A program made the position numbers and the translations under genes. Under the pieces are notes generated by a model. It made no database searches and was not told the origin of the DNA. It saw only the letters and a list, made by a program, of their open reading frames with translations. A stretch of 64,000 nucleotides of DNA, taken from NCBI GenBank assembly GCA_022072225.1, contig JAJVIC010000006.1:73785-137784 (forward strand), written 5' to 3'. Every line of letters starts with the position of its first letter. Position 1 is the first letter of the stretch. The DNA is from Bacteroidia bacterium. Its GTDB lineage: Bacteria; Bacteroidota; Bacteroidia; SXHM01. Of this stretch, positions 12,257 through 49,162 are shown piece by piece.

Positions 12257-12421
12257 TCAAATAAACCGATTGCGTATTTTTAGTGCACACAATTTCCCCA
12301 CGAAATGAACGGACTTGTTACCAAACGGTAAGTAACCGCGAAAAAAATTTGCCAAAGTGGCATATTCTGTATTCTGTTTTTCCTTAAGTCGGTTTCGTAT
12401 CATTTACTTATTACTAAGTAA

Positions 12422-12793: not shown

Positions 12794-13274
12794 AGAAATG
12801 GTTCTTGCACTATATCCTAATCGGCAAGGGTTCGGGTATGCATTCTTGGAAAAGCTGACCGAACCAAGGGATTGTGGAGTTGTTACGATTCGCCCTATAA
12901 GTAATCAAAAGTGCTTGGAGCGAATAAAAAAATTCATTGAGTATTATCAGCCAACTCTTATTCTCCTTGAAGACCCTGAAGGTAAATCTTCCTGGAAAAG
13001 TTTGCGTGTGAAAAAATTGATACACAGTATTACTGATTTTTGCCAACTCAACGACATTACGGTAAGACGTTATACACGAGAACAAATCCGATTCGTGTTT
13101 TCGGAATTTAAAGTGAAATCAAAGTACGAGATTGCTGCGCAGATAATAAAATGGTTACCACAGTTCAAAAACAAAATGCCCGAAGTACGAAAGCCTTGGA
13201 TGTGTCAGGATTACAACATGGTTATGTTTGATGCGATTTCACTTGCGATTACTCATTTTTATCTAGATAATTAA
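12777..13274 (+). CDS. Hypothetical protein (165 aa)
   Basis: 17-nt overlap with the upstream HTH gene. Conserved in copy B. Last gene of the repeat unit. Confidence 0.45.
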   Translation: MKNNNKEMVLALYPNRQGFGYAFLEKLTEPRDCGVVTIRPISNQKCLERIKKFIEYYQPTLILLEDPEGKSSWKSLRVKKLIHSITDFCQLNDITVRRYTREQIRFVFSEFKVKSKYEIAAQIIKWLPQFKNKMPEVRKPWMCQDYNMVMFDAISLAITHFYLDN

Positions 13275-24459: not shown

Positions 24460-25986
24460 ATGAGTAAAGATGTCGGACTATGGATTAGAGTATCTACTGA
24501 AGATCAGGCACAAAGTGACAGCCCTGAACACCACGAGAAACGTGCCCGTATGTATGCGGAAATAAAAAACTGGAATGTGCGAGAAGTATATTATTTGCTC
24601 GGGGTCAGTGGTAAGTCTGTCATGGAACATCCTGAAACAAAAAGGATGCTTGCAGATATTCAGGCAAGGAAAATCACTGGTTTGGTATTTTCAAAGCTTG
24701 CCAGGCTTTCCCGTAACCTGAAAGAACTGACTGAATTTTCTCAAATCTTCGGAAGTAATCATGCTGACCTTATCAGCTTGGATGAAAGCATCGACACGTC
24801 AACCCCTGCCGGTCGGATGTTCTATAATATTATGGGGTCGCTCAGCCAATGGGAACGGGAAGAAATCGCAAACAGAGTTGCAAAGTCCATTCCTGTTCGG
24901 GCTAAGCTCGGAAAGTCGCTTGGTGGTGAAGCACCCTTTGGCTACAAATGGATAGATAAAAAGCTTGAACTGGATGAAAAAGAAGCCCCGATTCGGAAAC
25001 TTCTCCATGAACTTTTTGCCGAACACAAGCGGAAACGTACAGTTGCCAATATGCTCAATGAAAAAGGGTATCGCACTAGGAATGGCAGCAAGTTTTCAGA
25101 TACCACCATAGACCGCCTATTAAAGGATCCTGCTGCAAAAGGTCTGAGGCGTGTAAACTATACTAAGAGTTCCGGTCTCAACAAAAAGTGGGAACTGAAG
25201 CCAAAAGAAGATTGGGTATTTCAAGAAGTGCCTCGCATCGTATCGGATGAACTTTGGGAAAAATGCAATCAAATTCTCGATGCAATTTCATCGAGCAAAA
25301 CTAAGGTCAGAAAAAGAACAATTCATCTTTTTAGCAGCGTTTTGCAATGCGATTGTGGCGAAAAAATGTACATGAGAAGCAAATCGCCAAAATATGTTTG
25401 CCGGAAATGCAAAAACAAAATTGGTCCGCAGGATTTGGAAGAAATTTATCACAGTCAGTTGAAACAACTTCTCTTTTCCGAAACTGAACTGGAAAAGCAT
25501 TTGCAAACGGAACAATCTCAAATCGGTGACAAAAAACAACTGATTGAAATATTAGTTGCAGATATTCAGAAACTGCATACCAAAATAAAAGACACTTTTG
25601 AGTTATACCATGAAGGTAAAATTCAAAAGGATGCGTTTGAAAGCTATCATAAGCCGTTATATGATGAATTGAAACAAAAAGAAATGACACTGAACGAAAC
25701 CCAAGCTTACATTGACAGTATACAGGTTCAATCACTTTCAAACGAACAAGTCCTTCACGATGCTCGTGATTTATATGCTCATTGGATTCAATTCTCCAAT
25801 GAAGAAAAGAAAACCATAATAGAAGCTATTACAGAGAATATCATTATTAGTGAAAGGGATATTACCATAAACCTTTCCTACATTCCTACGCTGACTCATG
25901 ATGCTGGGGCGACTATGAATCCAAATACTGCAATTGTATTACCCATATTGGTGCAATTAAGCAATGAACGTACATGGTTGCGTTGA
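24460..25986 (+). CDS. Large serine recombinase (third copy in window, distinct lineage)
   Basis: GLWIRVSTEDQ catalytic motif, FSKLARLSRN, recombinase domain, zinc ribbon CDCGEKMYMRSKSPKYVCRKCKNKI, coiled-coil C-terminus. Confidence 0.85.
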   Translation: MSKDVGLWIRVSTEDQAQSDSPEHHEKRARMYAEIKNWNVREVYYLLGVSGKSVMEHPETKRMLADIQARKITGLVFSKLARLSRNLKELTEFSQIFGSNHADLISLDESIDTSTPAGRMFYNIMGSLSQWEREEIANRVAKSIPVRAKLGKSLGGEAPFGYKWIDKKLELDEKEAPIRKLLHELFAEHKRKRTVANMLNEKGYRTRNGSKFSDTTIDRLLKDPAAKGLRRVNYTKSSGLNKKWELKPKEDWVFQEVPRIVSDELWEKCNQILDAISSSKTKVRKRTIHLFSSVLQCDCGEKMYMRSKSPKYVCRKCKNKIGPQDLEEIYHSQLKQLLFSETELEKHLQTEQSQIGDKKQLIEILVADIQKLHTKIKDTFELYHEGKIQKDAFESYHKPLYDELKQKEMTLNETQAYIDSIQVQSLSNEQVLHDARDLYAHWIQFSNEEKKTIIEAITENIIISERDITINLSYIPTLTHDAGATMNPNTAIVLPILVQLSNERTWLR

Positions 25987-26430: not shown

Positions 26431-26775
26431 CTATACCGTCTTTGAATCAATTACAGAAAACTTTATTATAGTAGCTGTATCTCCGGTATTATTCCAAATA
26501 TATGAATCAAGTCCCCAATAGAAATTGTGAGTCAAAGTGCCTGCTTGGTTCTTGGTAGCCTCATACTTTCCTTTTGAAGTATGCACTCTAATAAAATCAC
26601 CTTTATTTATTTTCATTTTAGGGAAATGAAAGAAGTGATGTTTCTTTTTAGAGGGTGTGCCGCTATTATCGAAAATACGATCAATTAAGGCATAATCTCC
26701 AATGTTTACGTCCTCTATTACATTGATAACTACATATTCATTTTCTTTATCAAGCCTGTTAATTTTTAAGCTCAT
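26431..26775 (-). CDS. Hypothetical protein (114 aa)
   Basis: ORF only. His-rich patch HHFFHFP. Confidence 0.35.
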   Translation of the reverse strand: MSLKINRLDKENEYVVINVIEDVNIGDYALIDRIFDNSGTPSKKKHHFFHFPKMKINKGDFIRVHTSKGKYEATKNQAGTLTHNFYWGLDSYIWNNTGDTATIIKFSVIDSKTV

Positions 26776-27346: not shown

Positions 27347-27877
27347 CTATTCGTTGTTCTTATTTTCACGTGTTTGTAAGAGTTTACCTTTCTCGTATGT
27401 TTCTTCTTTAATTATTACTCCAGTTTCGGAATAATATTTCCAAATACCGGTCTTTACAGCATTTTTATAAATTCCTTCAATTTGAATCTGACCATTATCG
27501 TAATAAAATATTGCCCCCCCTTCTTCATAACCATCTTTCCAAAAAGTTTTTTGGGATAACTTTCCATTTTCATAAAACCCTTTTGTTTCGCCATCTTGCT
27601 TACCATTTTGCATTTGAGAAATAGACATGGTATCCCCATCTTCATAATATTGAATAATTAGACCATTTATTTCTCCTTCTTTCCAATAGGTTTCATGTTT
27701 TTTCCCACCGCTCTTATAAAATCCTGTTTGGATTCCATTTAACTTTCCATTTTGATATTGTTTTATTTCGATTAAATGACCGTCAACATCATATTGTTTT
27801 ATTTCCCCGTCCTTAATTTTACAGGATAAAATAAAACACAAAAAACAGACATTTAGTATATAAAATTTTTTTCTCAT
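27347..27877 (-). CDS. MORN-variant (YwqK-like) repeat lipoprotein; candidate immunity protein
   Basis: Lipobox ILSC. Repeated G-x-Y/W-x-x-Y-Y/F-x-N-G units (GFYKSGGKKHETYWKEG, KGFYENGKLSQKTFWKDG, AIFYYDNGQ). Sits 2 nt downstream of the toxin-like gene. Confidence 0.6.
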   Translation of the reverse strand: MRKKFYILNVCFLCFILSCKIKDGEIKQYDVDGHLIEIKQYQNGKLNGIQTGFYKSGGKKHETYWKEGEINGLIIQYYEDGDTMSISQMQNGKQDGETKGFYENGKLSQKTFWKDGYEEGGAIFYYDNGQIQIEGIYKNAVKTGIWKYYSETGVIIKEETYEKGKLLQTRENKNNE

Positions 27878-27878
27878 A

Positions 27879-30038
27879 TTATTTTACAATTTCTTCTGTT
27901 GTATAAGTCTTTGATGATGTTTGACCTGTTGGTTGATTATTTTTATAGGTTTCTGTTGTTTCAGTTACTTGGAGACTTCTAAACTTTTCTACTTTATTGC
28001 CACCCCAAAATGTTTTAACATTTCTTGTTTGAATTTCTCCTTTCTGAATATCAAATTTGGTTACGCTATTTATGTTAAATTGGCTCTCATCATTTGGTCT
28101 TGTTAAATTAATTACTCTAGTTATATAGTTTTCTTCTACTGTTAATATATTATATTCATTTTGATTCATATAAAGCCACTCTGATTCAGCATAATTATCA
28201 TCTAAGAATGAGTATGTTCCTGTTCTTGCAGCTTCACCCCATGCTCCGTCATTGGGGGCACCAGATGTTAAACTTGCATATTCAGGTGTTGTCTTAAACA
28301 TACTTGCCAAAGCGCCTTTTGCACCATTTGATGTATGAGAAAGATTTGTTTCATGCCAATGTAATGTCTCAACATCCCAATCATATTCACCACCTTCATT
28401 TCTCGCTCTGGAGTTTCCATCCCAAGTATTTACAACATTATTAAGTAATTCTTCGTCAACAACAATTTTGATTCTATTCTTATCAAAATAATGAAAATTA
28501 TAAACGGCTGATCTATACAAATCAATTTTGAATGGCTTACCAGTTCTTGGGTCAATTGGCTCTTGTCCATCTTTATCAATAAACATAATGGGATTGTCAG
28601 CAAATGCTGCATATGGCGACCACATAGGATATTTTCTCTCTAACGGATCAACACTCATGAACCTTCCCAATCTCGCATCGTATATCCTTGCCCCAAAGTC
28701 ATACGCAAATGCCACAGGGTCGATCAATGATACGTTCTTTTTAGTGGTGTCTATTGCTGCAATAGTTTTGGTCTCCGTATCAAAAGTAAACTGCCCATAC
28801 TCTTCAAACTTTTGAGGATAGAAAACTTCCTGGAATAAGCCGCCTGTTAAAGAATAGAATTGATTGTATTCATCGGGTATTCCTTCAACAGTAAAAGGCT
28901 TTGGATTGCGGTCTGTAGGTTTCTCACCTTCTTTTGTTTGAAAACCATTTAATACCATTTCCTGGACATCCATTGGCATTTGTTTGTAGCCAAGGCGTTG
29001 CAAACGTGCGAGGTGGTTTTCCAATTCAACAAATGTTTTTTCTTTAGTGAGTTTACTAAGGTTTACTGTTTTATTGTCGCTAATTATTTTTAACATCCGT
29101 TCATTTAAAACCTGGTGTTTTAATAGCAACGCATTTAAGTTAAGGCTATCGTTTTGTAAAACAGTTTCGGCACATTGTAAAAGAAAATTATCGTCTTTAG
29201 TATTGAACTTATGTTCATACGCCTTGGCAAGATTTACCATGCACAAGCCAATGCTTTGTCTATTGTCATAACTGCGTAATGATATTCCGCTTTCAATGGC
29301 AGAACTTGTTGTATAGGTTAATGTTTGCAATATTCCATCGCCTGGATGTCCTGCGGTGGCAAGTTCAACATTATAATATTGTCCTTTTGTGTCGCGGTGT
29401 TGAATGTAAATGTGCTGCGGTGCGGTGCAAAGTTCCGCCCCTGTATTTAAGCGATCTGCCATTATTTTAAAGAATGCAGTTAAGGCAAAACAATTACCTG
29501 CTTGCTCTTTAGAATTAAGTAAATTCAGTAGTTGTGAATTACTCCAGTCTTTTATACCGAAAGGGTCCGCAGTTGAATAACTGAAAGGCAAATGAACGAG
29601 CGGATAAATACCTGTTGTATCTTCTATGTAAGTAAAAATAGCCCAATTATTAAGCGCATTTTTATAGAGTTCTTTTTTTCGTGTTGGTGAAATAGCAATT
29701 TCATTTATATCAAATCTTCCGTTTGCTTTTACCTTTGGAATGTAATTCATAGTGTCGCTGTAATCATTGGCGACTGCAAGGTTTTCAATAAAGGAAAGAT
29801 GAAAGTCTATGCTCTTTTGAAAAGTTTCATATCTGTATTGATTATTATGGAAAGGATTTTCGCTGATGAAAACGGCACGTTCAAAACTTGGAGTTTGTTT
29901 TCCTTCCATCATGTTTTTCAATTCAACAAAGGCAGAAGAAAAGTAATAGTACGTGCTGTCGTTTTTCTCGCTAGCGTGCAACGCAGCTGAGAATGCTGCG
30001 AATAGAACTGTGAGCAGCAAAAGGATTTTAGTTTTCAT
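27879..30038 (-). CDS. Secreted polymorphic-toxin-like protein: transglutaminase-like N-domain + RHS-core motif + unknown C-terminal domain
   Basis: Signal peptide. Cys/His region (EQAGNCFALTAFF...HIYIQH) paralogous to 30063..31571. RIYDARLGRFMSVDPL...SPYAAFADNPIMFIDKDGQEP matches the RHS-repeat-associated core terminus. ~220-aa C-terminal tail of unknown fold. Confidence 0.55.
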   Translation of the reverse strand: MKTKILLLLTVLFAAFSAALHASEKNDSTYYYFSSAFVELKNMMEGKQTPSFERAVFISENPFHNNQYRYETFQKSIDFHLSFIENLAVANDYSDTMNYIPKVKANGRFDINEIAISPTRKKELYKNALNNWAIFTYIEDTTGIYPLVHLPFSYSTADPFGIKDWSNSQLLNLLNSKEQAGNCFALTAFFKIMADRLNTGAELCTAPQHIYIQHRDTKGQYYNVELATAGHPGDGILQTLTYTTSSAIESGISLRSYDNRQSIGLCMVNLAKAYEHKFNTKDDNFLLQCAETVLQNDSLNLNALLLKHQVLNERMLKIISDNKTVNLSKLTKEKTFVELENHLARLQRLGYKQMPMDVQEMVLNGFQTKEGEKPTDRNPKPFTVEGIPDEYNQFYSLTGGLFQEVFYPQKFEEYGQFTFDTETKTIAAIDTTKKNVSLIDPVAFAYDFGARIYDARLGRFMSVDPLERKYPMWSPYAAFADNPIMFIDKDGQEPIDPRTGKPFKIDLYRSAVYNFHYFDKNRIKIVVDEELLNNVVNTWDGNSRARNEGGEYDWDVETLHWHETNLSHTSNGAKGALASMFKTTPEYASLTSGAPNDGAWGEAARTGTYSFLDDNYAESEWLYMNQNEYNILTVEENYITRVINLTRPNDESQFNINSVTKFDIQKGEIQTRNVKTFWGGNKVEKFRSLQVTETTETYKNNQPTGQTSSKTYTTEEIVK

Positions 30039-30062: not shown

Positions 30063-31571
30063 TTACTTAGAAAAAAATAAGTCGCGTGGTTGTCGTCCGT
30101 TTATTTTGCTTGCCCGTTGTAGTTTTTGTTTGGTATCGTAATACTTCATCAGTTGCATGTAATCGCTTTCGGGAAATTCCTGAATACCTGCTGTGTTTTC
30201 CTGTTCCATGAAATTAGTCAGGTTATTGTAAGCTGCAAAAGTTTCGGGGTCTTTTTCAATTTGAGAAAAATCGGTATAGCGTTTTGTTTGAACCTGCGTA
30301 TTGAGTTCATCAGCTAAAAGTCGTTTGTTTAAATACCTGAACGAACCATTGACATAATCTTTATTCGGAAAATAAGTTGCTGCTGTGTTCATGCAGTCGC
30401 GGATAAATTGCTTGTCGTAAAGCCAGTGTTCTTTTACATAGGTTACGGCAAGATCAATCATAACGGAAGCAATAATTTGTTTTTTGTTCAGGTTGGTGAT
30501 GTAAATTTTGTTGTTCATTGCTTTAGCCATGCGGGGTAAGGTTTCAAGATAAAACTGGTCGGGCATAATACTACCTGTTGTGGTTTCAAAATTGAGCGTT
30601 GCACCCAAATGGTTTTTATAACGAATGAAAGAATGCGAAAGCGAATAGCCAAGAAAAGCATCAATTTTCAAAGCTTCGGCATGAATGAGATAAGCAGTGG
30701 GAAGCGTGTGGCATTGACCGCCACCGGTGGCAAGAATTTTTGTTACAAAATAATTGGTTCTGTTTTCGGCAGGGTCATAATTGAGGTAATCATAAAAGAA
30801 AGGTGCATGTGCTTTATCTTCTTTTTTTAGAAATAAGGTATCAGAATTAAAACGCTGAATACCCATGTGAAGCATTTCGGGGTCGGACATATTCATGTTG
30901 TTCTCTTTCAGCCACTGCCTAATGAAATCAACATTCTGCGTGATAATGCTTTTGTATTGCTCATAAGAAAGCAACACATTTCCGTAAGCAGCCTCTTCGT
31001 AATAATAAGCATCGGCAATTGAAAGGGCTGTGCGCTCTTCCAACATATCTTTCAATTTAGTGAAAGCATTTTGATAGTTTACAAAATCGTTTTTGTAAAC
31101 AGAACTCTTATAATAATCATCGTTAAATTTCAGCTTGTTATTTGAAACCTCAAACAACAAGTCATTGAACTCTTTCATTTGTTTTTGTTGGGAGCTTTGC
31201 TCCGGTGGTCGTCCGTTTAATTGGTTTTGTTGCTGTGCATTTATCTGTTGTTGTGTTGCTTGCTTGCTGTTGCCATACACAGCTAAATTTTGTTGCTGCT
31301 TTAGAATGTCGTCAGCGGTTGTGCCATTACCTTTGCGCTGCTTCATGTCATTAGTCATTGTTTGTGCACTATTGACGGGATACGACCATCCAAAGGGTGT
31401 CAATTCGGGCATAAAAACATCGTTCTGCTGTTTAATAAGAATGCTGTCGCCAAGCGTATTATACATGCTGCTAATGCTACCAACTTTTTGTTGTGCATTA
31501 GAAGAAGGACAATAGAATAACAATATAATCGTTATGCTTTTTAGAACTAAAAAAATTACCCGCTGAACCAT
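30063..31571 (-). CDS. Secreted transglutaminase-like cysteine-peptidase-fold protein with Q-rich linker
   Basis: Signal peptide. QQ-rich low-complexity region. GGGQCHTLPTAYLIHAEAL with downstream His/Asp-type residues. Confidence 0.5.
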   Translation of the reverse strand: MVQRVIFLVLKSITIILLFYCPSSNAQQKVGSISSMYNTLGDSILIKQQNDVFMPELTPFGWSYPVNSAQTMTNDMKQRKGNGTTADDILKQQQNLAVYGNSKQATQQQINAQQQNQLNGRPPEQSSQQKQMKEFNDLLFEVSNNKLKFNDDYYKSSVYKNDFVNYQNAFTKLKDMLEERTALSIADAYYYEEAAYGNVLLSYEQYKSIITQNVDFIRQWLKENNMNMSDPEMLHMGIQRFNSDTLFLKKEDKAHAPFFYDYLNYDPAENRTNYFVTKILATGGGQCHTLPTAYLIHAEALKIDAFLGYSLSHSFIRYKNHLGATLNFETTTGSIMPDQFYLETLPRMAKAMNNKIYITNLNKKQIIASVMIDLAVTYVKEHWLYDKQFIRDCMNTAATYFPNKDYVNGSFRYLNKRLLADELNTQVQTKRYTDFSQIEKDPETFAAYNNLTNFMEQENTAGIQEFPESDYMQLMKYYDTKQKLQRASKINGRQPRDLFFSK

Positions 31572-33401: not shown

Positions 33402-34655
33402 CTATTCTACATTAAATCCAGCCTTCTTACTTAAGGATTTGAGAAAATTTTCAAATTCGGTTTCCCATAATTCTTCATGACTTTGCGTTTCCAAGGGAAC
33501 GGTCAATGACTTATTATCGGATTTGGCAGTTACTTGCCATTTCTGAATATTGGAATCGTTTTTATGTTTTAGTGGTTGCAATCGTAATTCAGAGTTTTTC
33601 CCGTTATATATACCTTGTAGTTTCTCCCAGATGTTATTCTCGGTTTTTAAAAGTGCTGCCATGGGACTATTATAGTGTTTTTGACTATATACGAATAAAA
33701 AATTCCTATTCTGAGAATGATCGATAACATTCACACTGAAAATTTCACTTTTAAATGAGATACGCCTCTTATTCCAGATTGCACTTCCTTCAAAATAAAA
33801 TTTGTAATACCCTGGAACAACAATCTTTGATAATTCCAACAGCAATGTTTCAGAAGTTTTTGGAAGTACTGAATATATTTTGGCATCAGGGAGTACTGCA
33901 ATGGATTTTCCAATTATTTCGCTGGGGTGAAAATATAACCGTGTCGGTTCATTAATGCCTCGGAGTGTATGTTGTCTGATAATTCGTTTTTGAGTGTTTT
34001 GAATATATTGTGTTGTGATGACGTTTAATGTAAGTACATCAAGTTTTTCGTTTGATTTATTCGTTAGTTGTAACCAAACCTGATACGAACTTTCGGTATG
34101 AGATTTTATGACCCGAGTATCGACTATAAAGTAATCATAGGCATTGGGTTTGGGTGAATCAAAAAAATCAAACCTTACTGCTTGAGGGGTATAAATATGT
34201 GGTTCCACTGGAGTTGAAATAACATAATCTTCCAGACCCAATTTTTGTAAGGCAGCTTTACTCTGAATAAATTTACTTTCTAAACTTTCTCCTATCCAAA
34301 GCTCTATTGCAAAAGGCACTTCTGTGTTTTCTAGGATGTGATGTAATTCATTGCTTAAATCAGTAGGACTGACAATCACGAACCGATCAATATCTTTTGC
34401 ATCATGCCATACGAGCTTTGAAGCTATGTCGGTAACGTTAAGCTTACGATTTAAGTTTTTACACTCAAATTTCCAGACTTCATATTGACCTAATTCATGC
34501 GAATATTTTCTTGCAGAAATATCATATCCGAATTGACTGCCCGCATTTTGCAAACGAACATTTTCAAACCCAATATCTTTCAATAATTCATATACAAGTT
34601 TTTCGAAATATTTTCCCTTATTGGGTAGCGACAATAGTTTCTCAATTATTTTCAT
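33402..34655 (-). CDS. Mrr-cat-like PD-(D/E)xK restriction-endonuclease-domain protein with ~300-aa unknown C-terminal domain
   Basis: GKYFEKLVYELLKDIGFENV...FGYDISA...WKFECK matches the Mrr N-terminal catalytic domain (D, E-x-K). Confidence 0.55.
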   Translation of the reverse strand: MKIIEKLLSLPNKGKYFEKLVYELLKDIGFENVRLQNAGSQFGYDISARKYSHELGQYEVWKFECKNLNRKLNVTDIASKLVWHDAKDIDRFVIVSPTDLSNELHHILENTEVPFAIELWIGESLESKFIQSKAALQKLGLEDYVISTPVEPHIYTPQAVRFDFFDSPKPNAYDYFIVDTRVIKSHTESSYQVWLQLTNKSNEKLDVLTLNVITTQYIQNTQKRIIRQHTLRGINEPTRLYFHPSEIIGKSIAVLPDAKIYSVLPKTSETLLLELSKIVVPGYYKFYFEGSAIWNKRRISFKSEIFSVNVIDHSQNRNFLFVYSQKHYNSPMAALLKTENNIWEKLQGIYNGKNSELRLQPLKHKNDSNIQKWQVTAKSDNKSLTVPLETQSHEELWETEFENFLKSLSKKAGFNVE

Positions 34656-34663: not shown

Positions 34664-37600
34664 CTATTTTTTATTTCTCCTCAAAGAATTTAAAATGGTA
34701 TTTGCCACTTGTTGCTGTGAATCGGAACTTGCTGTTCCCACATTTACTTTTATCCGATAACCTTTCACTATTTTTTCTTCCGGCTGCTTTTGAATTGTGC
34801 TTAAGAAGGTAAAGAGTTCTGCGGTTTGACAGCACACAATATTTTTCAGTTCTGTTTTACTGAAATGTGTTTCGCACAAAGTCTGTATTCTCCCTAAGTG
34901 TACTGTGTTCTCTGAACACACAAACACCTTTGAATATCCCGCATGGAAACATTTCTTAATATTTCCGACTTCGTATTCTTTCGTATTGGTAACTGCGATT
35001 TCACACGCTATTTTCAAATTGTCCTTTATTAACCCTACATCAACTCTGCCTTTGCCATCTGGTGTTGGTTCTTCAATCACTGCTTTAAATCCATATCCCT
35101 CTGCTATGCGTTTAATGAGTTCTTGCAAGTAGCGATGTTCTCGCATTTCACGTTTCTGTTCTTCTTTCTCGGTGAACTCTTTTCCTTTCTGCTGTATTGC
35201 TTCATCTGCCTCTTTAAACTCAGGTTGTGGTTGTTCTTTTGGCTGTTCAGGTTGTGGTTCTTGTTTAGCTTCTTGCTTTGGAATTTCTGTTTTTTCAGTC
35301 TCAGCTTTTCGTTCTGAAAATCGTAGTGACTGTGCTAAAAGTTCTTCAACTTCTTCTCGCGGTTTACCATAAGCACTTCGTGAAAGTATTGCTACTTTAT
35401 TCCGTACCAACTGTGCATACTTTTCGTTCTTTGCTTCAATGAAAGGAATTGCAATATTGAAATCATTGTCTTTGCGTTCAACTCGTACAATAGCTTGTCC
35501 GGTATTTAGATTCTGAATATCTGTTTCGTCAAAAGATGAAAAGCTGTTTGCAAGTTGTTTGGCATCTTCTTCACCGCATCTGAAGCATACGCGCGTTGCG
35601 GGATTTGAAAGCACTGAATTTGCAAGCTCTTTATCTAACGTTCGTAACTGTTCCAAATCCTGATGCGCCAAAACAAGCCCTAATCCATACTTCCGTGCCC
35701 CTGAAAGGATGGAGCTCATGGATGGTGTTATAAAATGTTGAAATTCGTCTATATAGAGAAAAAACGGTAAACGTGCCTCTTCCTTCATATTCTGCCTGTG
35801 AAGCGCTGCCTGGTGCAATTTTGCCACGATAATAGAGCCTAAGAGGTAGCTGTTATCCTCTCCGATTAGCCCTTGTGAGAGCTTTACTAAAAATATCTTC
35901 TTGGAATTTATGACATCATGAAAGTCTATCCCGCTTTTTTGGACCATCATATTGCGTACAATCCTCGGACGCAAAAAGGTATCAAGCCTTGTTAAGATTG
36001 GTGCAATGGAATTAGAGCGCAGAAGCGGGAATTCTTTTTTCCAGTAATACACAATATTGGGGTCGTTTACTTTCTGCAATGTTTTTGCACGAAAGGCATC
36101 ATCTGTCAGGAATTGGCGCAAATCCAGAAATGTTCCTCCATCTTCATGTTCTAAGAATGCAATTACTGCATTAGCCAAAACAGAAGTCATCTGATCGCCC
36201 CAACTAGTCGCAAACCGTTTAAACAGAGAAACAATATCTGAAGAAAGAATAATTTTTTCAGGTTCTGTTTTTGCAAATAATAAATTCAGTCCTACGGGGT
36301 AATCGGTATCAGATGGGTCAAGTAATACGACATCTTTAATTCTGTGTGCGGGAATATGCTCAATCGCTTTTTCTATTAAGTCACCATGCGGGTCAAGAAC
36401 GCAAAGTCCATTTCCTAATTGCATATCTTGAATAATGGATTGCAAAAGGAAATTTGATTTGCCCGTGCCCGTTGCTCCTATGACATGAGTGTGTCGCAAG
36501 CGTTGCTGAACTGAAAGTGCGGCTTTTCGTTCTTGCCCCAAATAGTTATTTAAGCCTAAAACAAAATCGTGATGCAATACTGCTTCTGGTGCTGGCTTTG
36601 TTTTTCCTTGGTAGGTGCGAAGTTTTGGCGCGGAAACAGTCATATCCGGTATATGCACAATGGACGCAAGCTCTCCCGCATTTAAAATCATTCCTGTTCT
36701 TCGGGACAAACGATTTTCAACATCTTCTAAAACACAGTCAATACTTTGAATGGGAACTGACGTAAAACTATTGCACCCTTGTCGGTGTAGTGCAGATAAA
36801 CTTTGCACTATCTCATTATTAAGCGACATAGCCTTGTCAACGGTATGGCTAATCGTCAGCACTCGAATAGTTGCAACGAATAAAGGCTTTGACACTTTTT
36901 CCTGAACCAGTTTCGCCATGTCAGGGTCATTCCTGAAAAAAGATTTTCCATGATGGTCTGTTGCAGCTCGCATCATACTTTGCGCCCATTGGTTTACTGT
37001 GCCTTTAAATAACACCTGCACAATAGCACGTTCATTTTTTTGTACTGTTCCTAAGACAGATAGGCAGCCCGCTAATGGGTCGGGACTAAACTTGTCATAG
37101 CATTTGATGGGTCTCATGAATTCCTGGGCAAGTCCAAGTTCATGGATGGCAAACCCCATATGGTCTTCCACATTTTGAAGGAGCATATTTTCAAATTCTG
37201 AAACAACAACGGTCGGCAAATATTCTTCGACATAGCTGCGGACTATTGAAACGTCTTGTGCATCACAGCTTAATTGAATTTGAATCTTGTCATGGTGTCC
37301 AACAATTTCAAACGAAAGAGTATTTCTCGTGTTTGATAGCAACACTAATAACTGTTCAATAAAGCCTAATTCAATACGCGTATCTTTTTGAAACGAAAAA
37401 TGAAGTTCACGAATACGAGGTCTTTCGTCTATGACATTGTATGCATTGATAGGATATAACTCTTGGAGATATTGAACGGCCTCTTCTGTCTGCGGCTGTT
37501 CTTTTTCTTTTGTTCCAAAGAGTGTAGAGAATGCATCAACAACGGTTGGGAAAAATCGCGGTCGTACACCATCATCAATTGTGGTTTGATATTGTGGTGG

Positions 37601-37735
37601 TAAATGACCAAAAAAGGGAATGAATTCAGGCTCTAACTCAACGGGGTCTTGAAACACATTCCATCCTCGTCCACGCTGTTCCCACGTGTAAAATTGGGCG
37701 GTGTAAAATTCTTCAAGCGAATATCCGTTATGCAT
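34664..37735 (-). CDS. HerA/TraD-FtsK-like ATPase fused to C-terminal Mrr-cat-like PD-(D/E)xK domain (1023 aa)
   Basis: Walker A GATGTGKSNF, VLDPHGD, Walker B FFLYIDEFQHF, VLAHQ. Acidic E/Q/P-rich linker, then ELIKRIAEGYGFKAV...GRVDVGL...IACEIAV. No TM helix. Confidence 0.6.
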   Translation of the reverse strand: MHNGYSLEEFYTAQFYTWEQRGRGWNVFQDPVELEPEFIPFFGHLPPQYQTTIDDGVRPRFFPTVVDAFSTLFGTKEKEQPQTEEAVQYLQELYPINAYNVIDERPRIRELHFSFQKDTRIELGFIEQLLVLLSNTRNTLSFEIVGHHDKIQIQLSCDAQDVSIVRSYVEEYLPTVVVSEFENMLLQNVEDHMGFAIHELGLAQEFMRPIKCYDKFSPDPLAGCLSVLGTVQKNERAIVQVLFKGTVNQWAQSMMRAATDHHGKSFFRNDPDMAKLVQEKVSKPLFVATIRVLTISHTVDKAMSLNNEIVQSLSALHRQGCNSFTSVPIQSIDCVLEDVENRLSRRTGMILNAGELASIVHIPDMTVSAPKLRTYQGKTKPAPEAVLHHDFVLGLNNYLGQERKAALSVQQRLRHTHVIGATGTGKSNFLLQSIIQDMQLGNGLCVLDPHGDLIEKAIEHIPAHRIKDVVLLDPSDTDYPVGLNLLFAKTEPEKIILSSDIVSLFKRFATSWGDQMTSVLANAVIAFLEHEDGGTFLDLRQFLTDDAFRAKTLQKVNDPNIVYYWKKEFPLLRSNSIAPILTRLDTFLRPRIVRNMMVQKSGIDFHDVINSKKIFLVKLSQGLIGEDNSYLLGSIIVAKLHQAALHRQNMKEEARLPFFLYIDEFQHFITPSMSSILSGARKYGLGLVLAHQDLEQLRTLDKELANSVLSNPATRVCFRCGEEDAKQLANSFSSFDETDIQNLNTGQAIVRVERKDNDFNIAIPFIEAKNEKYAQLVRNKVAILSRSAYGKPREEVEELLAQSLRFSERKAETEKTEIPKQEAKQEPQPEQPKEQPQPEFKEADEAIQQKGKEFTEKEEQKREMREHRYLQELIKRIAEGYGFKAVIEEPTPDGKGRVDVGLIKDNLKIACEIAVTNTKEYEVGNIKKCFHAGYSKVFVCSENTVHLGRIQTLCETHFSKTELKNIVCCQTAELFTFLSTIQKQPEEKIVKGYRIKVNVGTASSDSQQQVANTILNSLRRNKK

Positions 37736-38533: not shown

Positions 38534-40348
38534 TTATGCTGGTATAGCTACTGCATTCTTTTTCCAGATTACATCAATCTCGCCAATAAGAAAATTTGTT
38601 CTTGCTTCAATTTTATGCTCATCCCAAACGATATCGCCCTCATCAAAGGGTTTCACTAAATCAAGTTTCGTAATTATTAATTCAGCATAGTCTTTTATTC
38701 CTTTTTTTCTGCCTTCTCCTACCATTTTGACTTCATACTTATAATTTTTAAGTGCAGAATTTAAATTTGTCGTTAGCAGAGTCATGTTTCCAATCCAATA
38801 GATTTTTGCCCAGCGGTCTTCAGCCGACTCTTTTTCTGACATAAGAGAACCATCAGGCTTGGTTTTTACCGGTAATGTGCCCCAATGCTCAGTCCAACTC
38901 TGTGGCATAATGTGCTCTAACGAATAGCAGTATTTTAAAGCCGTAGTATCATTCTTTTTATCATTATGTCTTCTATGAAGCTCGACCCAAAATAATAAAA
39001 GTGCTGCGTGACGATTCGAAATATACTTTAGCTGATTGTAAAAATCAGCATCATTACTTTCGGCTAAACGTGCATAAAGAGCGTTGGGATTTGTAATAAA
39101 CTCTTTACAAAATTTATTAAAAGCTTTTACTTCGTGTTTTGAAATAACGCGTCTTACTACAAAACTTTCAATGGCGGAAAACACTTTCTCTAATTGGGCT
39201 TCATCGTCACGCAAGCTTTTAAACAGATGTAATATCAATGGATGAAACGTTGAAATTTCAAAGCAATCCAAAATATGGAATAGTCGCTTCTGATATTCAT
39301 CAAAAGAGAACATTGTTTGATTGGTAAATATTAAAAATTTCTTCTTGTAAATGTCTGCGTATTCGGTAATATCCTCAATAAATTTCTTAATCTGATCAAA
39401 CGTTGTAAAATTTGCAATGTGCTCTTTATACAGCCAAGATAAATCTGACAGTGTATGCTCGTCAGGGTCGTAAATTCCTTTGATAACAGCTACCGAGTGA
39501 AGTAGGAGTTCAATATTATCTCTTCGCAAGCGTCCAGTTGAGCGTTGTGTTTCCCAAAAAGTAACATTCTCTTTTTCCCCGGTAATAATTTTATTCCAGG
39601 TCGCACTATATAATTTGATAGCTTCTTTTTGACCCTTCAGTTGGATTACCTTTTGAAAAAGAGCATTTTTTATAATATCAGCGGCACTCAAATGAACTCC
39701 TGCGCTGTTAATGGTATCGAATATAGCTTGCTCCTCGTCTTTCGCCCCTAAATCAATGACAACTAGAATTTCATTTTCGCTTTTTGTGAGCCAATTAAAA
39801 AGCGCCATATTTTCTTTCGAATCTTTTTTCTCAAGTTCATTTAAAAAATATTGATAGCATTGCATAACTCTGCTATCACTATCATTGGGAATTACCAATG
39901 GTGAACTATCTATTCCTGCTCGTATAACGGATTCATATACCTGTGCATCCAAATGCGAATGTTGAATCTTAATAAGATAATTTTCATCCGTTTCATCTAT
40001 TTTATAAAACAGACAATTTCTCATTGAGTTTTCTACATTTTTCTTAGTCGCATCCGGTAATGAATCGTATAAAGCTTTGAGTAGAATACTTAATGTGGTT
40101 AAACGTTGTTGTCCATCAATAATAAGAGCTTCTTTAGGTTCACCCGTTGCAACTGTTTGCTGTTTTAAAATGATTGAGCCTAAAAAGTGATTTTTACTGG
40201 TGTTGGAAAGTTCGATAAGTAAGTCTTCCCAATTATCTTTTTTCCAAACATAAGCTCTTTGAAAAAATGGTACACGAATTAGTGCTTCCATTTTAAGAAA
40301 CGTAAAGGCTCTCGATTTTGCTTCCATCGTGTAAGTATTTGAAAGCAA
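38534..40348 (-). CDS. GmrSD-family type IV restriction-like protein (DUF262 + DUF1524)
   Basis: N-terminal FFQRAYVWKKDNW and IIDGQQRLTTL (DGQQR, DUF262). C-terminal YSLEHIMPQSW His-Me finger (DUF1524). Confidence 0.75.
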   Translation of the reverse strand: MLSNTYTMEAKSRAFTFLKMEALIRVPFFQRAYVWKKDNWEDLLIELSNTSKNHFLGSIILKQQTVATGEPKEALIIDGQQRLTTLSILLKALYDSLPDATKKNVENSMRNCLFYKIDETDENYLIKIQHSHLDAQVYESVIRAGIDSSPLVIPNDSDSRVMQCYQYFLNELEKKDSKENMALFNWLTKSENEILVVIDLGAKDEEQAIFDTINSAGVHLSAADIIKNALFQKVIQLKGQKEAIKLYSATWNKIITGEKENVTFWETQRSTGRLRRDNIELLLHSVAVIKGIYDPDEHTLSDLSWLYKEHIANFTTFDQIKKFIEDITEYADIYKKKFLIFTNQTMFSFDEYQKRLFHILDCFEISTFHPLILHLFKSLRDDEAQLEKVFSAIESFVVRRVISKHEVKAFNKFCKEFITNPNALYARLAESNDADFYNQLKYISNRHAALLLFWVELHRRHNDKKNDTTALKYCYSLEHIMPQSWTEHWGTLPVKTKPDGSLMSEKESAEDRWAKIYWIGNMTLLTTNLNSALKNYKYEVKMVGEGRKKGIKDYAELIITKLDLVKPFDEGDIVWDEHKIEARTNFLIGEIDVIWKKNAVAIPA

Positions 40349-40420: not shown

Positions 40421-42451
40421 ATGGAAATATTATTCTTATGGATTAATAATTTTAATAACATCAAAGAGCAAGGATTTCAATTTGGAGGTAAGTATTTTAT
40501 TACTTATGATAAGAATAATCATGCACTTTATTTTAATAAAAATCCAAAATACATTGAAGGTTTTTTTAAAAATATTACTAATGACGCAAGTGATGGTGTT
40601 ATAAATAGCGTCTCAGCTTTAGTTGGTTCAAATGGTAGTGGGAAAAGCAGTGTAGTTCAATTTTTAGCAGGACAATTAATGGCTGGCCATATAATGGGTA
40701 GCAATAAATTACCGCTAAAAGATAACGGATTAATTGTAGTTGAAAGAGAAAATGAATTTCTCATTTATGATAACGATGAAGATGAGAAATTTATACACAA
40801 GCCTTTTAATCAAGATTCAGGTTTTACTGTTGATATTATTAAAGCTAACAAGAGAAAAACATACCCGCATGGAAATAGACTATATCATGAATTAATTGGC
40901 ATTTATTATTCTGATAGTTGGCATGATAATGTTGTTAAAACTATCGGTTCAGAGTCTGATTTAATCAACCTCTCAAGTAGTACATTATATTATAAAAGCC
41001 ACACTCCTATAGAACATGATTTAAAGAGAAAAAATAACTATACGACAGTATATTACCCTGATAAGCATATTAGTGATGATGTTAGAAGACAAATTGTTTT
41101 CATTAATGAGAAACATGAAGTAGTAAAGAAACTTGGTATAAAAATTCCATCTCACATTAATATTTTTATTCGGCAAGAATATACTATGGGTGGTGGAAGT
41201 AAAAACCCAAGAATAAAAGAGGATTCGGAAAAATTTCAAAAAACATTTCGATTAGTTTATCAAGCATATACCCCACAAAATGATATTGATTTTATTAGAT
41301 TGTTTTTCCTATCGGCATCCTTGGCTTTTTATGTTTATCCTTCCAAAAAATTTATTGAAAGGATAAACGAAAGATATAATGAATTTAATGTAGAAAATTT
41401 AGAATATGATTTTAAGCTTCTCACAGAAAAGTCTGCTACTCCGTTTGATTTAGCATATAAATTTTTATCATATCCTTTTTTTGAAATTCCAAAGGAAGCT
41501 GTAAAATTAAGAGAAGAGGATGAGCCTGTTGTTTCAGTTGATTTTAAAGTTCCAGAAACTATTTCTTACCTCAAATTCATAGATGAAAACTTCACAATAT
41601 CAAACATAAATCTACAGAAGTATAAAGAATCTATATTGGAGGATTTTCTGACAAATGGTGGCTTAAAAGAAAATCGTCAACTGAGTTTTAATCCATTTCA
41701 TTTTTATCTTAATTCTAACTATGGATATGAGTTTCTAAATAAATATCTCCATCACTTATTTAATGAAGTTGCAATAGATTATTTAGAGTTTAATCCATTA
41801 GAATTAAGTTCAGGGGAAATCGCGTTTCTGAATATTCTCTCAAGAATAAACTGTATTGGGAAAGAGGAAGTAAATAATTACAACAGATTCAAGTATATGA
41901 AATATACAGGTGCGAAAAATATTTTATTCTTTATTGATGAAGGAGAGGCACACTTTCACCCTCAGTGGCAAAAGAAATTTTTAGAACTATTGTTGAATGT
42001 ATTACCTGGGATGTTTCAAAATAAAACTATTCAACTTATTCTCACTTCGCATTCACCTTTATTTTTATCCGACCTTCCTCGTGAGAATATTAATTTTCTT
42101 AAACGCAATGAAGTTAAAGGAGTATGTGAGGTCTCAGATTTAGAAAGCAGAAAAGACACTTTAGGTGCAAATATTCACACTTTACTTGCAGATAGTTTCT
42201 TTATTCAAGGTGGACTCATTGGAGACTTTGCAAAAAATAAAATTAATGAAGTAATAGAACTATTGCAGGATGGTCCCACTGAGAAAATTTACGGTAAAAA
42301 AGAAGAGATAAAAAAAATTATACGAATGATTGGTGAACCAATTATTCGGAACAAACTGACACAACTTTTGAATGAGAGAATAGATGTAGATGAACGAATA
42401 AATGATTTACAGCGACAATTAGATAAACTGAAGAATAAGAAAAATGATTAG
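40421..42451 (+). CDS. ptuA: PtuA-like (Septu) ABC/AAA_21-type ATPase, full length
   Basis: Walker A VGSNGSGKSS, Walker B ILFFIDEGEAHFHP, LTSHSPLF. 676 aa. Confidence 0.6.
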   Translation: MEILFLWINNFNNIKEQGFQFGGKYFITYDKNNHALYFNKNPKYIEGFFKNITNDASDGVINSVSALVGSNGSGKSSVVQFLAGQLMAGHIMGSNKLPLKDNGLIVVERENEFLIYDNDEDEKFIHKPFNQDSGFTVDIIKANKRKTYPHGNRLYHELIGIYYSDSWHDNVVKTIGSESDLINLSSSTLYYKSHTPIEHDLKRKNNYTTVYYPDKHISDDVRRQIVFINEKHEVVKKLGIKIPSHINIFIRQEYTMGGGSKNPRIKEDSEKFQKTFRLVYQAYTPQNDIDFIRLFFLSASLAFYVYPSKKFIERINERYNEFNVENLEYDFKLLTEKSATPFDLAYKFLSYPFFEIPKEAVKLREEDEPVVSVDFKVPETISYLKFIDENFTISNINLQKYKESILEDFLTNGGLKENRQLSFNPFHFYLNSNYGYEFLNKYLHHLFNEVAIDYLEFNPLELSSGEIAFLNILSRINCIGKEEVNNYNRFKYMKYTGAKNILFFIDEGEAHFHPQWQKKFLELLLNVLPGMFQNKTIQLILTSHSPLFLSDLPRENINFLKRNEVKGVCEVSDLESRKDTLGANIHTLLADSFFIQGGLIGDFAKNKINEVIELLQDGPTEKIYGKKEEIKKIIRMIGEPIIRNKLTQLLNERIDVDERINDLQRQLDKLKNKKND

Positions 42452-43514: not shown

Positions 43515-45278
43515 CTACCTACTTCCGTCATATGTATATGATAATGTTTGTAAATGTCCAGTCGTTGCATATGGTCTACCTCTCTGAGTAGTTCGACCTG
43601 TTTCAGATATTAAATAAAGATTGTTTTTTGCTCGTGAACAAATAACATATAATAGCTTTTTGGCTGTACTTTGAGCATCTTCTTCATTCCAGTTAGGTAT
43701 ATAGCCATGCAATAATCCAAATGCAATAACTGTTTGAAATTCTTCTCCTTTAATTCCGTGGCAAGTATTTACTACAACGCCTGAATTATGTGAAAATAAT
43801 CTCTTGAAACTTTTTACATCTGTAGCATAATCAAATTCACGATTTTCTAATCTCTTTTTTGCTCCTTCAAAAAATGAATCCCAATGCAATTTCAAATACT
43901 CATTTTCTTCAACCTTGATTTTTAAATTTTCACAAGCTTTTGAAAAACATTCATGAAGAAATTCCAATCCATTAACCCGATCAGATTTAATAGCATTAAG
44001 CGATTTTAAAAGGCTTCGAGTTCTTCTTTCATCATCTGGAAAAAGATGTACACCAATACCATCAAGCTCATTTAATAATTCAGCAGCCCATCTTGTTCTT
44101 GTATGATACATATTAGGAGCAGGGTCAACTAAAAATAAACGTGCAAATTTATACCACGTATTTTCTCTATTGCGTATTAGGGGTGAAAGTCCAGGCGCGT
44201 CAAAGTTCACGGATGGCAATAATTTTTTTAGCTTTCTACCCATTGGGATAATTAACCACCATTGCGGGGCTAAAACACATATTTCATGCTCAGGAACACC
44301 TTTTGCAATATTTTCTTGGATTAATGAAGCAATTGTTTCATCAAGGACATCTTTATGCACCTCTTGATTGGAAAAGCTTATTAAACCTCGCTCATCAGAA
44401 TATTTACAAAGAGATTTGATGTCAATATTTGTAGATTGAAAGTTTCGGTAGTAGTCTATTATTCGTTGATTACTTCTGTAATTACCTGACAATTCTTTCT
44501 CCCGCATTTCAATATTTCCAAATTGCGCTTTTATCTCATTTAAAGATTTTGCAACACCGCCCAGTGATACATATATTGCTTGATCTTTGTCTCCTACTAT
44601 AAATAACAGTGTTTTACCATTTTGAGCCTTAATTATTTTAGATAATATGGCGTATTGCAGTTCCTGGGTGTCTTGATATTCATCCACGCATATTAAATGG
44701 AAAATGTTATTTAAAGTTTTTGCAATTTTTGGATAATTATCAAGTAAGGCATATGCAAAATAAAGCATTTGATCAAAGTCAATAAGCTTGTGGGTTTTCA
44801 ATATACTATGGTATTCCTTAACTAAATCGATATTCGTAATTTCTGCTAATGAACCATCTGCATTTATTCGGGTTAGGATTCTTGTATACCAAGGCAGACT
44901 ATACTTCTCTTTTAAAGCCGAAATAATTTCTTCTGATCTATGTTCATCAGCGATAACAAAACCGTTTTTTAGTTCATCCAAATAACCTTTATAAGGGCGG
45001 AGTATCCAGTCTAAGCAAAAAGAGTGAATTGTGCCTGCCCAAAGTTGGGCTTTAGGCTCAACGTTCATTCTGCTTATTCTTTCCTTTATCTCATCTGCTG
45101 CACGATTAGTAAAAGTTAATGCAACAATTGTTTTTTTACTCTCTTCAATTTTTTTAAGTTCATGAGCAATTTTAAAAGTAAGTACACGAGTTTTGCCACT
45201 GCCGGGACATGCAGTAATCAAAACATGTCCCGACTCAATCACTGCTGCTTTCTGTTGTTCACTTAAACTTCTAAGCAC
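43515..45278 (-). CDS. gajB: GajB-like UvrD/PcrA-family helicase
   Basis: Motif I CPGSGKT, Ia TFTNRAADEI, II VDEYQDTQ, III VGDKDQAIY. 8-nt overlap with upstream OLD-family ATPase gene. Confidence 0.7.
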   Translation of the reverse strand: MLRSLSEQQKAAVIESGHVLITACPGSGKTRVLTFKIAHELKKIEESKKTIVALTFTNRAADEIKERISRMNVEPKAQLWAGTIHSFCLDWILRPYKGYLDELKNGFVIADEHRSEEIISALKEKYSLPWYTRILTRINADGSLAEITNIDLVKEYHSILKTHKLIDFDQMLYFAYALLDNYPKIAKTLNNIFHLICVDEYQDTQELQYAILSKIIKAQNGKTLLFIVGDKDQAIYVSLGGVAKSLNEIKAQFGNIEMREKELSGNYRSNQRIIDYYRNFQSTNIDIKSLCKYSDERGLISFSNQEVHKDVLDETIASLIQENIAKGVPEHEICVLAPQWWLIIPMGRKLKKLLPSVNFDAPGLSPLIRNRENTWYKFARLFLVDPAPNMYHTRTRWAAELLNELDGIGVHLFPDDERRTRSLLKSLNAIKSDRVNGLEFLHECFSKACENLKIKVEENEYLKLHWDSFFEGAKKRLENREFDYATDVKSFKRLFSHNSGVVVNTCHGIKGEEFQTVIAFGLLHGYIPNWNEEDAQSTAKKLLYVICSRAKNNLYLISETGRTTQRGRPYATTGHLQTLSYTYDGSR

Positions 45279-49157: not shown

Positions 49158-49162
49158 AGTTT

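Follow-up and report, generated by a model that had tools for sequence, protein, structure and literature searches.

Sec-dependent polymorphic toxins with an N-terminal 'inactive transglutaminase' domain, RHS elements and diverse C-terminal toxins have been described (Zhang, de Souza, Anantharaman, Iyer and Aravind 2012; PMC3482391, section 19, Fig. 5D), and the occurrence of transglutaminase together with RHS in Bacteroidetes is recorded in the Ntox10 row of that study (PMC3482391). The locus described here lies in a 64,000-nucleotide (nt) stretch of DNA from a Bacteroidia bacterium (contig JAJVIC010000006.1; hereafter, the window) and comprises three genes on the minus strand. These very probably form a Sec-dependent polymorphic toxin module in the order partner, carrier-toxin and immunity gene, of a family seen so far in Bacteroidota-type genomes. 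Like the toxins of the earlier set, the carrier-toxin protein of the window, of 719 amino acids (aa), has a transglutaminase-like domain directly after its signal peptide. Those toxins have, however, lost at least one of the Cys, His and Asp residues, whereas the Cys, His and acidic residues are invariant in 120 of 120 members of the carrier family compared here; moreover, they continue into RHS-repeat arrays, while the window protein keeps only the last part of the RHS core. The two sets were set apart by description, and the proteins that they contain may overlap. Apart from Zhang et al. (2012), literature searches turned up no account of the shell-less architecture, and no paper describing the partner gene, the tail of the window protein or the membrane-type partner of that tail.

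The C-terminal autoprotease of Rhs proteins is characterised by a PxxxxDPxGL motif and two catalytic aspartates (D1324 and D1346 in RhsA), and Photorhabdus Rhs1 has two DPLGL motifs 17 residues apart, with the cut just past the second (PMC8765631, PMC8636562). Like Rhs and TcC toxins such as Pseudomonas protegens RhsA, Pseudomonas aeruginosa Tse5, Photorhabdus TccC3 and Yersinia YenC2, the window protein has the end of the RHS core, two aspartates and P-xxxx-D-x-x-G ahead of a variable candidate toxin; its tail domain also occurs on bona fide RHS-repeat proteins, and orphan tail/immunity cassettes exist. Unlike them, it lacks a YD-repeat cocoon, so that the toxin is not encapsulated, and it would be exported by a Sec signal peptide rather than by PAAR/VgrG or TcA/TcB. 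In the carrier family the Gly is followed by R, K, E or Q as opposed to L, and the N-terminal module is transglutaminase-like and accompanied by a paralogous partner gene.

The SitA lipoprotein toxins of Myxococcus likewise consist of a family carrier, a variable toxin and an immunity gene, and are transferred by TraA/B outer-membrane exchange; we know of no equivalent of this exchange for the window family. MafB of Neisseria (MAFB-N/DUF1020) is listed under type II secretion system (T2SS)/Sec (PMC3482391, Table 1). The window module resembles MafB and SitA in its layout, in which a Sec or lipoprotein signal and an N-terminal carrier particular to the family are followed by a variable toxin at the C-terminus, with the immunity gene downstream. 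The carriers themselves are not related, however, and MafB and SitA possess neither an RHS-core junction nor a paralogous partner gene.

The three genes and the parts of the carrier-toxin protein are as follows.

30063..31571, minus strand: partner gene (502 aa), first gene of the operon, conserved
27879..30038, minus strand: carrier-toxin gene (719 aa), from the open reading frame (ORF) call; ORF intact
29970..30038, minus strand: Sec signal peptide of the toxin, residues 1-23 (MKTKILLLLTVLFAAFSAALHA, followed by S), read directly from the sequence
28944..29957, minus strand: carrier N-domain, residues ~28-365, a Transglut_core2-like core then TPR-like helices (AlphaFold2, conservation, Pfam matches of relatives)
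28707..28943, minus strand: linker with a short beta-meander, residues 366-444 (AlphaFold2; alignments with P0039 and P0121/P0122)
28563..28706, minus strand: C-terminal end of the RHS repeat-associated core, residues 445-492 (TIGR03696, PDB chains, conservation)
27882..28562, minus strand: variable tail, residues 493-719, candidate toxin domain (tail family search, AlphaFold2)
27347..27877, minus strand: MORN-variant-repeat lipoprotein (176 aa), candidate cognate immunity protein

All three genes are co-directional, running partner, carrier-toxin, MORN. The partner gene is separated from the ATG of the carrier-toxin gene by 24 nt, and the TAA stop of the latter from the ATG of the MORN gene by 1 nt (TAA-T-ATG), not by two as an initial annotation, made from the sequence alone, had it. 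A scan for promoters and terminators gave counts not above those of shuffled sequence, Bacteroidota promoters not being of the sigma-70 type. A Bacteroidia metagenome-assembled genome encodes a 'hypothetical protein' with 100 % identity to the 719-aa protein.

Exchange of tails at the RHS-core end

A homology search with the 719-aa protein identified at least 233 homologues, which have residues 1 to ~492 in common with it at 40-60 % identity. The best 120 of these are 611-806 aa in length, save P0059 (556 aa) and P0117 (477 aa), and are 43-61 % identical to the query (one at 85 %), nearly all over its first 56-70 %, with few covering more. The pairwise alignment ends at query residues 490-500 in 80 of the 120, and of the sequences past the D-x-x-G motif, 87 tails could be scored and sort into at least 46 unrelated clusters. 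Few tails are recognised by Pfam, the families being CHAP, Peptidase_M23, M91, YkuD, DUF6973, VWA7_N, Tox-MPTase3, Toxin-JAB1, GIY-YIG, Tox-PL-2 and M10. A complete Vicingaceae genome (3,259,072-bp contig) encodes at least four carrier-family paralogues, with different tails.

The exchange can be placed to the codon in one relative, locus L026, where the carrier protein is 85 % and the partner gene 81 % identical to those of the window. Identity between the two DNAs (82.6 % over 2,931 nt) ends at window position 28567, in codon G491. Past this codon L026 encodes an unrelated tail, and the downstream gene there specifies an unrelated 201-aa lipoprotein; no MORN gene is present. The RHS-core end is a conserved junction at which tail-plus-immunity cassettes swap by recombination.

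The motifs YDARLGRFMSVDPL (residues 453-466) and NPIMFIDKDGQEP (residues 482-494), from which an RHS-core terminus had initially been proposed, lie in a segment matched by TIGR03696 (Rhs_assc_core; E = 3.6e-9, 37.0 bits against a curated cut-off of 32.5, residues 445-492). The match covers only model positions 30-76 of 76. A profile built from 60 family members also matched, in this segment only, the PDB chains of YenC2 (E = 1e-5), TccC3 (5.7e-5) and RHS2 (3.5e-4), and the resemblance is therefore not spurious. The sister protein P0039 matches TIGR03696 positions 3-75 of 76 over the equivalent region, so that the short linker (residues 366-444) is a remnant of the last RHS repeats; this region can also be aligned with the short carrier of P0121/P0122.

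The lack of a YD-repeat shell, likewise part of the initial annotation, is borne out. Neither RHS_repeat nor another Pfam family was found in the 719-aa protein at E <= 1, and the distance from the N-domain to the RHS core is only about 80 residues. In the AlphaFold2 model this interval contains a three-stranded meander (strands at 411-429) and is otherwise of low confidence, with no cocoon.

Rhs proteins served as the criterion for the predicted cleavage site (PxxxxDPxGL and catalytic aspartates about 22 residues apart). The window protein has two aspartates of the autoprotease type, D464 in SVDPL and D488 in P483-xxxx-D-K-D-G491-Q492, with 24 residues between them. Conservation at these positions is high: D464 in 119/120 homologues, P483 in 118/120, D488 in 115/120 (with 4 Glu) and G491 in 119/120. 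The crystal chains of cleaved proteins 4igl_B (690 aa), 4o9x_A (2,191 aa) and 6l7i_G (664 aa) end one residue past the column aligned with G491, and conservation within the tail family starts at [E/D/N]-P-I-D-P-x-T-G, one residue beyond the TcC cut position; taken together, these place the predicted cut between Q492 and E493. Self-cleavage at this position would probably release the tail.

The carrier N-domain and its paralogous partner

Residues ~30-360 of the carrier are modelled by AlphaFold2 with high confidence (predicted local distance difference test, pLDDT, mostly > 90) as an alpha/beta core followed by helical repeats. Among the 120 homologues, C183, H209, N223 and E225 are invariant and D234 is present in 119. 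The candidate catalytic triad is C183/H209/E225, with N223 and D234 as alternatives for the acidic residue; equivalence to a transglutaminase triad is based on the region of the Pfam alignment and on spacing, not on superposition. The window protein itself gave no match to Transglut_core2 (PF13369), nor to any Pfam family, at E <= 1, and the transglutaminase-like domain assigned to it initially is supported through its relatives and the conserved residues. Six of eight relatives matched Transglut_core2, at profile positions ~48-109 (the Cys..His core), with P0114 (24.6) and the L010 partner (24.5) above the gathering cut-off of 23.5 and the four others below it. Foldseek analysis of the N-domain gave menin for all top PDB matches, weakly (E about 0.013, probability up to 0.96); menin has been described as a transglutaminase-like domain combined with TPR-like repeats.

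In the protein encoded by the upstream partner gene, a signal peptide and a linker rich in Gln precede a domain with transglutaminase-like and helical parts. The paralogy between this domain and the carrier N-domain, noted in the initial annotation, was confirmed by BLASTP (E = 2e-10, 22 % identity over ~370 residues), and Transglut_core2 was also matched in relatives of the partner protein. Partner orthologues were identified directly upstream of carrier-toxin genes at L026 (81 % identity), L009 (49 %, 3e-134), L010 (44 %) and L001 (35 %). Locus L005 represents a split state: a 448-aa partner-type gene precedes a 346-aa gene of the carrier N-domain type, which matches residues 1-380 of the window protein at E about 1e-40. 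Next comes a 361-aa protein in which a signal peptide and a short linker lead into the RHS-core end and the same tail as in the window, and a small membrane protein closes the series. Since the transglutaminase-like module is a separate gene in L005, it would be a separable accessory or carrier part and not the toxin.

The signal peptide of the window carrier, assigned from the outset, can be read at residues 1-23 and looks like the signal peptidase I type, as in the subgroup of the carrier family to which the window protein belongs. At least 69 of the 120 family members (by regular expression, with several more by eye) carry an N-terminal lipobox Cys instead. The 'unusual carrier scaffold' of the initial annotation is not a one-off: it belongs to a large family in Bacteroidota, accompanied by a paralogous partner gene that is likewise conserved, and N-terminal transglutaminase domains in polymorphic toxins were known before (Zhang et al. 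2012; PMC3482391, section 19).

Three features of this part of the family were seen in passing. After the signal peptide, partner proteins begin with Gln/Pro-rich low-complexity sequence. Their C-termini (window 30063-30110, and the orthologues of L001, L009 and L010) contain a conserved basic stretch followed by Leu-Phe (...GRQPRDLFFSK, ...KTKKSLFLN, ...KSKRNLFF and ...KQKRNLFIQSF), which may be a sorting or interaction signal. At L010 (1-4163), a carrier-toxin operon with a distant tail (P0053) stands directly after a TonB-dependent receptor and exbB-exbD-exbD-tonB, an adjacency that may be coincidence.

The tail and its two types of partner

The tail was initially described as unrecognised, and it remains so: for these 226 aa (residues 494-719), no Pfam match was obtained at E <= 10 and no NCBIfam match at E <= 0.01, a tail profile matched among PDB sequences only a phage tail tube protein (E = 1.6), and the best Foldseek match of the tail model in the PDB had E = 0.36. 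AlphaFold2 models the tail with a pLDDT of 79 and a predicted template modelling score of 0.78; the model comprises a small alpha/beta subdomain at the N-terminus and a sheet in which long strands run antiparallel. With an isoelectric point of 5.0 and a grand average of hydropathy of -0.89, the domain is acidic and hydrophilic. Residues invariant in the tail family are PIDPxTG, D35, G114, Y116, V141-E142, I146, R154, K173, R179, T199-E200 and Y219, with D120-D121 nearly so. Two activities were considered and dropped. An ExE-type ADP-ribosyltransferase motif in 'AESEW' falls in a poorly modelled segment that is deleted in the distant member P0053. A pore-forming long beta-hairpin with a conserved W-W-G-G tip was speculative in so strongly hydrophilic a domain, and the one-sided hydrophobic pattern of the hairpin is equally explained by packing of the sheet on helices. 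The sole match of the full-length protein to PDB sequences, P-II (E = 0.63), was weak and taken as chance.

When the tail served as query, a word-indexed search for homologues did not recover even the window protein, and an exhaustive search with a hidden Markov model (HMM) was used. Among 1.84 billion proteins it identified 68 tail-family representatives at 50 % identity (54 at E <= 1e-10). In all of them the domain is located at the extreme C-terminus, on carriers of 240 to 3,169 aa. As the initial annotation had suggested looking for, the tail does occur on other carriers: RHS_repeat/DUF6443 proteins of 3,169, 2,215, 1,343 and 1,223 aa (and an open frame of >2,221 aa at L011), short signal-peptide proteins (P0121, P0122 and P0125) and orphan cassettes starting with the YRYxFNGxExD part of the RHS core, in addition to the transglutaminase-like carriers of the window, L001 and L017.

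Individual tail loci show further arrangements. P0126 (L003/L011, one contig, JAHDEE010000076.1) is called as a 240-aa gene, and its frame remains open for >2,221 codons upstream with RHS-like sequence, the short call probably being an annotation artefact or the mark of a pseudogene; no immunity-type gene was seen downstream at this locus. A 65.7-kb contig (L015/L016) has two tail copies ~8 kb apart, each followed by an identical 145-aa membrane protein and preceded, upstream of the RHS-core end, by different sequence, which looks like a recent duplication or displacement of the cassette. At L008 (2211-5537) the tail and membrane-protein pair is followed by an array of further orphan cassettes, each with a MVMPGR...GGDYR[YF]GF.G.EK start (the RHS-core start) and then a small gene; one has a TseH-type tail.

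The protein encoded directly downstream of the window tail is, as initially stated, a lipoprotein of MORN-variant repeats: MORN_2 (PF07661) was matched at E = 2.5e-17 (61.4 bits, cut-off 29.6) with four repeats, and the lipobox is ILSC, with the Cys at residue 19. Downstream genes were compared at 25 or so tail loci. Homologous MORN lipoproteins (matching that of the window at E = 1e-18 to 1e-33, with gaps between tail and MORN genes of -50 to +54 nt) directly follow the tail at L004/L018-L020 (near-identical), L006, L007/L022/L023 and L021, giving at least five tail lineages, the window and at least four independent others. All of these homologues with a complete called N-terminus carry a lipobox, the gene call at L004 starting at the lipobox Cys. 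In place of a MORN lipoprotein, at least nine loci (L001, L002, L005, L008, L014, L015/L016, L017, L025 and L027) encode a protein of ~145 aa, or 152 aa at L027, with 4-5 predicted membrane segments and no Pfam family match. Other polytopic membrane proteins lie downstream at L013 and after the distant tail of L010. The MORN and ~145-aa types were never found together at tail loci, and one or the other follows the tail on four carrier types. In a neighbour-joining tree of tails (without support values), the MORN-linked tails form deep branches and those linked to the membrane protein a crown clade. The window tail is the exception, MORN-linked yet nested in the crown beside L027.

The MORN protein thus appears, from gene order and homology, to be one of two alternative partners of the tail. 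The downstream gene changes with the tail rather than with the carrier, as immunity genes would be expected to do, and the lack of co-occurrence fits alternatives for one role, not two roles. The lipobox indicates that the MORN protein works outside the cytoplasm, and with both partner types located in the envelope the tail would act in the periplasm or at the membrane. The proposal that the MORN protein is the immunity protein is accordingly upheld for its recurrence and qualified by the nine or more loci, L027 among them, that have the membrane protein instead.

Small membrane-embedded immunity proteins are known for the pore-forming colicins. Membrane-type immunity proteins of envelope-acting toxins, such as Imm-CdiI and Imm17, have also been described, and most immunity proteins are cytoplasmic, the secreted or membrane ones matching toxins active at the cell surface (PMC3482391, section 38). 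The ~145-aa partner resembles these membrane-type proteins in consisting almost entirely of membrane-spanning helices; unlike helical pore-formers, the window tail is hydrophilic and beta-rich.

YwqK of Bacillus subtilis is cytoplasmic, without an export signal, and YwqJ belongs to the LXG toxin family. The ywqJ-ywqK genes have been treated as a toxin/antitoxin pair, YwqK partnering the LXG-family toxin (PMC8321402). The likeness to YwqK drawn in the initial annotation holds for the repeat type, the window protein being built of MORN_2 repeats, and for the position of its gene directly after the toxin gene; one relative is named 'antitoxin component YwqK' by the Joint Genome Institute (JGI). 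It does not extend to location, since the window protein is a lipoprotein and so lies outside the cytoplasm, nor to the toxin domains, which are unrelated.

These comparisons show directly that the architecture is modular, where tails are swapped, that the tail is mobile and that it co-varies with two partner families located in the envelope. At the level of sequence, the family appears to have what defines a polymorphic toxin (Zhang et al. 2012): a shared carrier with unrelated tails, a downstream gene that co-varies with the tail, and the same tail on other carriers and in orphan cassettes. The toxin/immunity reading given initially to the locus agrees with the alignment ends at 490-500, the 46 or more tail clusters, the swap at L026 and the recurring MORN partner.

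Mode of action, alternatives and genomic setting

In the mechanism proposed for the module, the 719-aa protein would cross the inner membrane by means of its signal peptide, and its transglutaminase-like and helical module (~28-365) would work together with the paralogous protein encoded upstream. Residues 445-492 would represent the last piece of the RHS core, which forms the aspartyl autoprotease in Rhs and TcC proteins, and would serve both as the junction for cassette exchange and as the place of the probable cut that frees the tail. The tail (493-719) would be a toxin domain of undescribed fold, its site of action in target cells being most likely the periplasm or the cytoplasmic membrane. 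A producer of such a Sec-exported toxin would need a periplasmic immunity protein. In the window genome this is probably the MORN lipoprotein, which would bind and neutralise the tail outside the cytoplasm and shield the producer from its own periplasmic toxin pool and from toxin arriving from sister cells. Toxicity, immunity by the MORN protein, self-cleavage between Q492 and E493 and the envelope target are steps that we infer. A wider interpretation, put forward tentatively and somewhat doubtful, takes the carrier and its paralogous partner as an unrecognised Sec-dependent system of Bacteroidota for toxin export and processing, with a cocoon-free Rhs autoprotease, an envelope toxin of new fold and two unrelated immunity solutions. 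Such a two-protein papain/transglutaminase-like module could present or release toxins, immunity being provided by a periplasmic MORN lipoprotein or by an intramembrane protein.

Several observations weigh against the toxin module as proposed. Among the window ORFs scanned against Pfam no secretion-system genes were found. The tail has no fold match and is acidic and hydrophilic. The MORN homologues are only 30-38 % identical to the window protein, and the closest tail relative (L027, 57 % identity) is paired with the membrane protein. At the cleavage site, the window motif is D-K-D-G-Q and not D-P-x-G-L, the family having DPDG followed by R, K, E or Q where Rhs proteins have L. Residues 445-476 are modelled at pLDDT < 50 by AlphaFold2, and the autoprotease plug of solved Rhs proteins sits within the cocoon (PMC8765631), which the window protein lacks.

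These points bear on three alternatives. The RHS-core segment might be a recombination handle only, without protease activity, the tail staying attached or being freed by the papain-like Cys-His module of the carrier or its partner. For this, which we regard as possible but not probable, speak the missing cocoon for the plug and the low model confidence there, the P1 residue other than Leu, the Cys-His-acid residues being invariant in 120/120 as for an active enzyme, and the listing of 'Proteases: Transglutaminase' for some RHS toxins (PMC3482391, table in section 5). Yet conservation of D464, D488, G491 and P483 at 96-99 % in about 120 divergent members goes beyond what a DNA-level handle needs, and the tail family starts exactly one residue past the TcC cut position. 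It is unlikely that the MORN lipoprotein is an accessory or bystander and that the real immunity protein is the ~145-aa membrane protein, lost here, with the toxin gene decaying or otherwise neutralised. Such a loss would accord with the pairing of the closest tail relative and of the whole crown clade with the membrane protein, of which the 64-kb window holds no copy; MORN_2 proteins are, besides, common, and that of the window has no close relatives (at most 32 % identity in a word-indexed search). Set against it are the mutually homologous MORN lipoproteins found right after the tail in at least five lineages and on four carrier types at the short gaps given above, their never co-occurring with the membrane protein, the lack of a MORN gene after the different tail on the 85 %-identical carrier of L026, and the intact 719-aa ORF.

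The third alternative concerns the family as a whole, whose proteins would be secreted enzymes of envelope or cell-wall remodelling or of predation, with a transglutaminase-like domain for anchoring, interchangeable catalytic heads and downstream genes acting as regulators or inhibitors that serve the cell itself. Several tails are indeed peptidoglycan enzymes (CHAP, M23 and YkuD), no delivery system was found in the window, and N-terminal transglutaminase domains have been proposed as cell-surface anchors by Zhang et al. (PMC3482391, section 19). Other tails, however, are typical intracellular toxins (GIY-YIG nuclease, Toxin-JAB1, Tox-PL-2 and Tox-MPTase3), and the window's tail is common to canonical RHS toxins and arrays of orphan cassettes (L008, L015/L016). 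The joint swapping of tail and downstream gene at the RHS-core junction is a signature of toxin/immunity diversification, and four paralogues with different tails stand on the single contig of the complete Vicingaceae genome; remodelling or predation enzymes are thus a very unlikely explanation. The three-gene toxin module remains the preferred reading.

The window contains no further RHS-core or orphan cassettes. The module is located within a mobile/defence island, whose other identified genes in the window are listed below.

24460..25986: large serine recombinase
33402..34655: Mrr-like nuclease
34664..37735: TraG/TrwB-like ATPase
38534..40348: GmrSD
40421..42451: AAA_21 (AbiEii-like) ATPase
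43515..47409: OLD-family ATPase with TOPRIM (712 aa), then UvrD-type helicase (587 aa), from Pfam domains

The OLD-type ATPase and UvrD helicase (43515-47409) make up the pair of genes by which Gabija anti-phage systems are typically recognised. Downstream of the MORN gene, a stretch of ~570 nt with two hairpin-plus-T-run sites and no ORF of >= 60 aa is followed by a 114-aa ORF on the same strand (26431-26775), with a weak match to the Lamin-tail domain (E = 1.5e-4, under the cut-off). On the other side, a 577-aa pentapeptide-repeat protein (31642-33375; Pentapeptide_3, 9e-18) with a hydrophobic C-terminal region is encoded divergently from the toxin operon. A segment of ~7 kb occurs twice in the window (6251-13264 and 49111-56145), at 85 % identity over 3,640 nt, 93 % over 1,660 nt and 69 % over 446 nt. 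It encodes two DNA methyltransferases, a RadC-like JAB protein, a TrwB/TraG-like ATPase, a large serine recombinase and a phage Rep-O-like protein, and looks like two copies of one integrative mobile element. Adjoining one copy is a 1,361-aa ORF (2188-6273, minus strand) with no Pfam match at E <= 1e-4.

This module leaves the overall view of polymorphic toxins as it was and adds one variant to it. In the current understanding of Rhs proteins, a cocoon encloses the toxin and frees it by a cut made from within. The carrier family keeps the cutting motif and the junction, and has discarded the cocoon, which is replaced by another secreted scaffold and a paralogous helper. If cleavage works in this setting, the autoprotease would be more self-contained than structural work suggests, and the family would offer a small, tractable model. 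The family numbers hundreds of members, and its tails come in dozens of types, most of which match nothing known; environmental Bacteroidota thus possess in it a store of antibacterial domains that are as yet untested. The tail of the window protein is a good first candidate, having a confidently predicted fold without a solved relative and two partners that point to the cell envelope.

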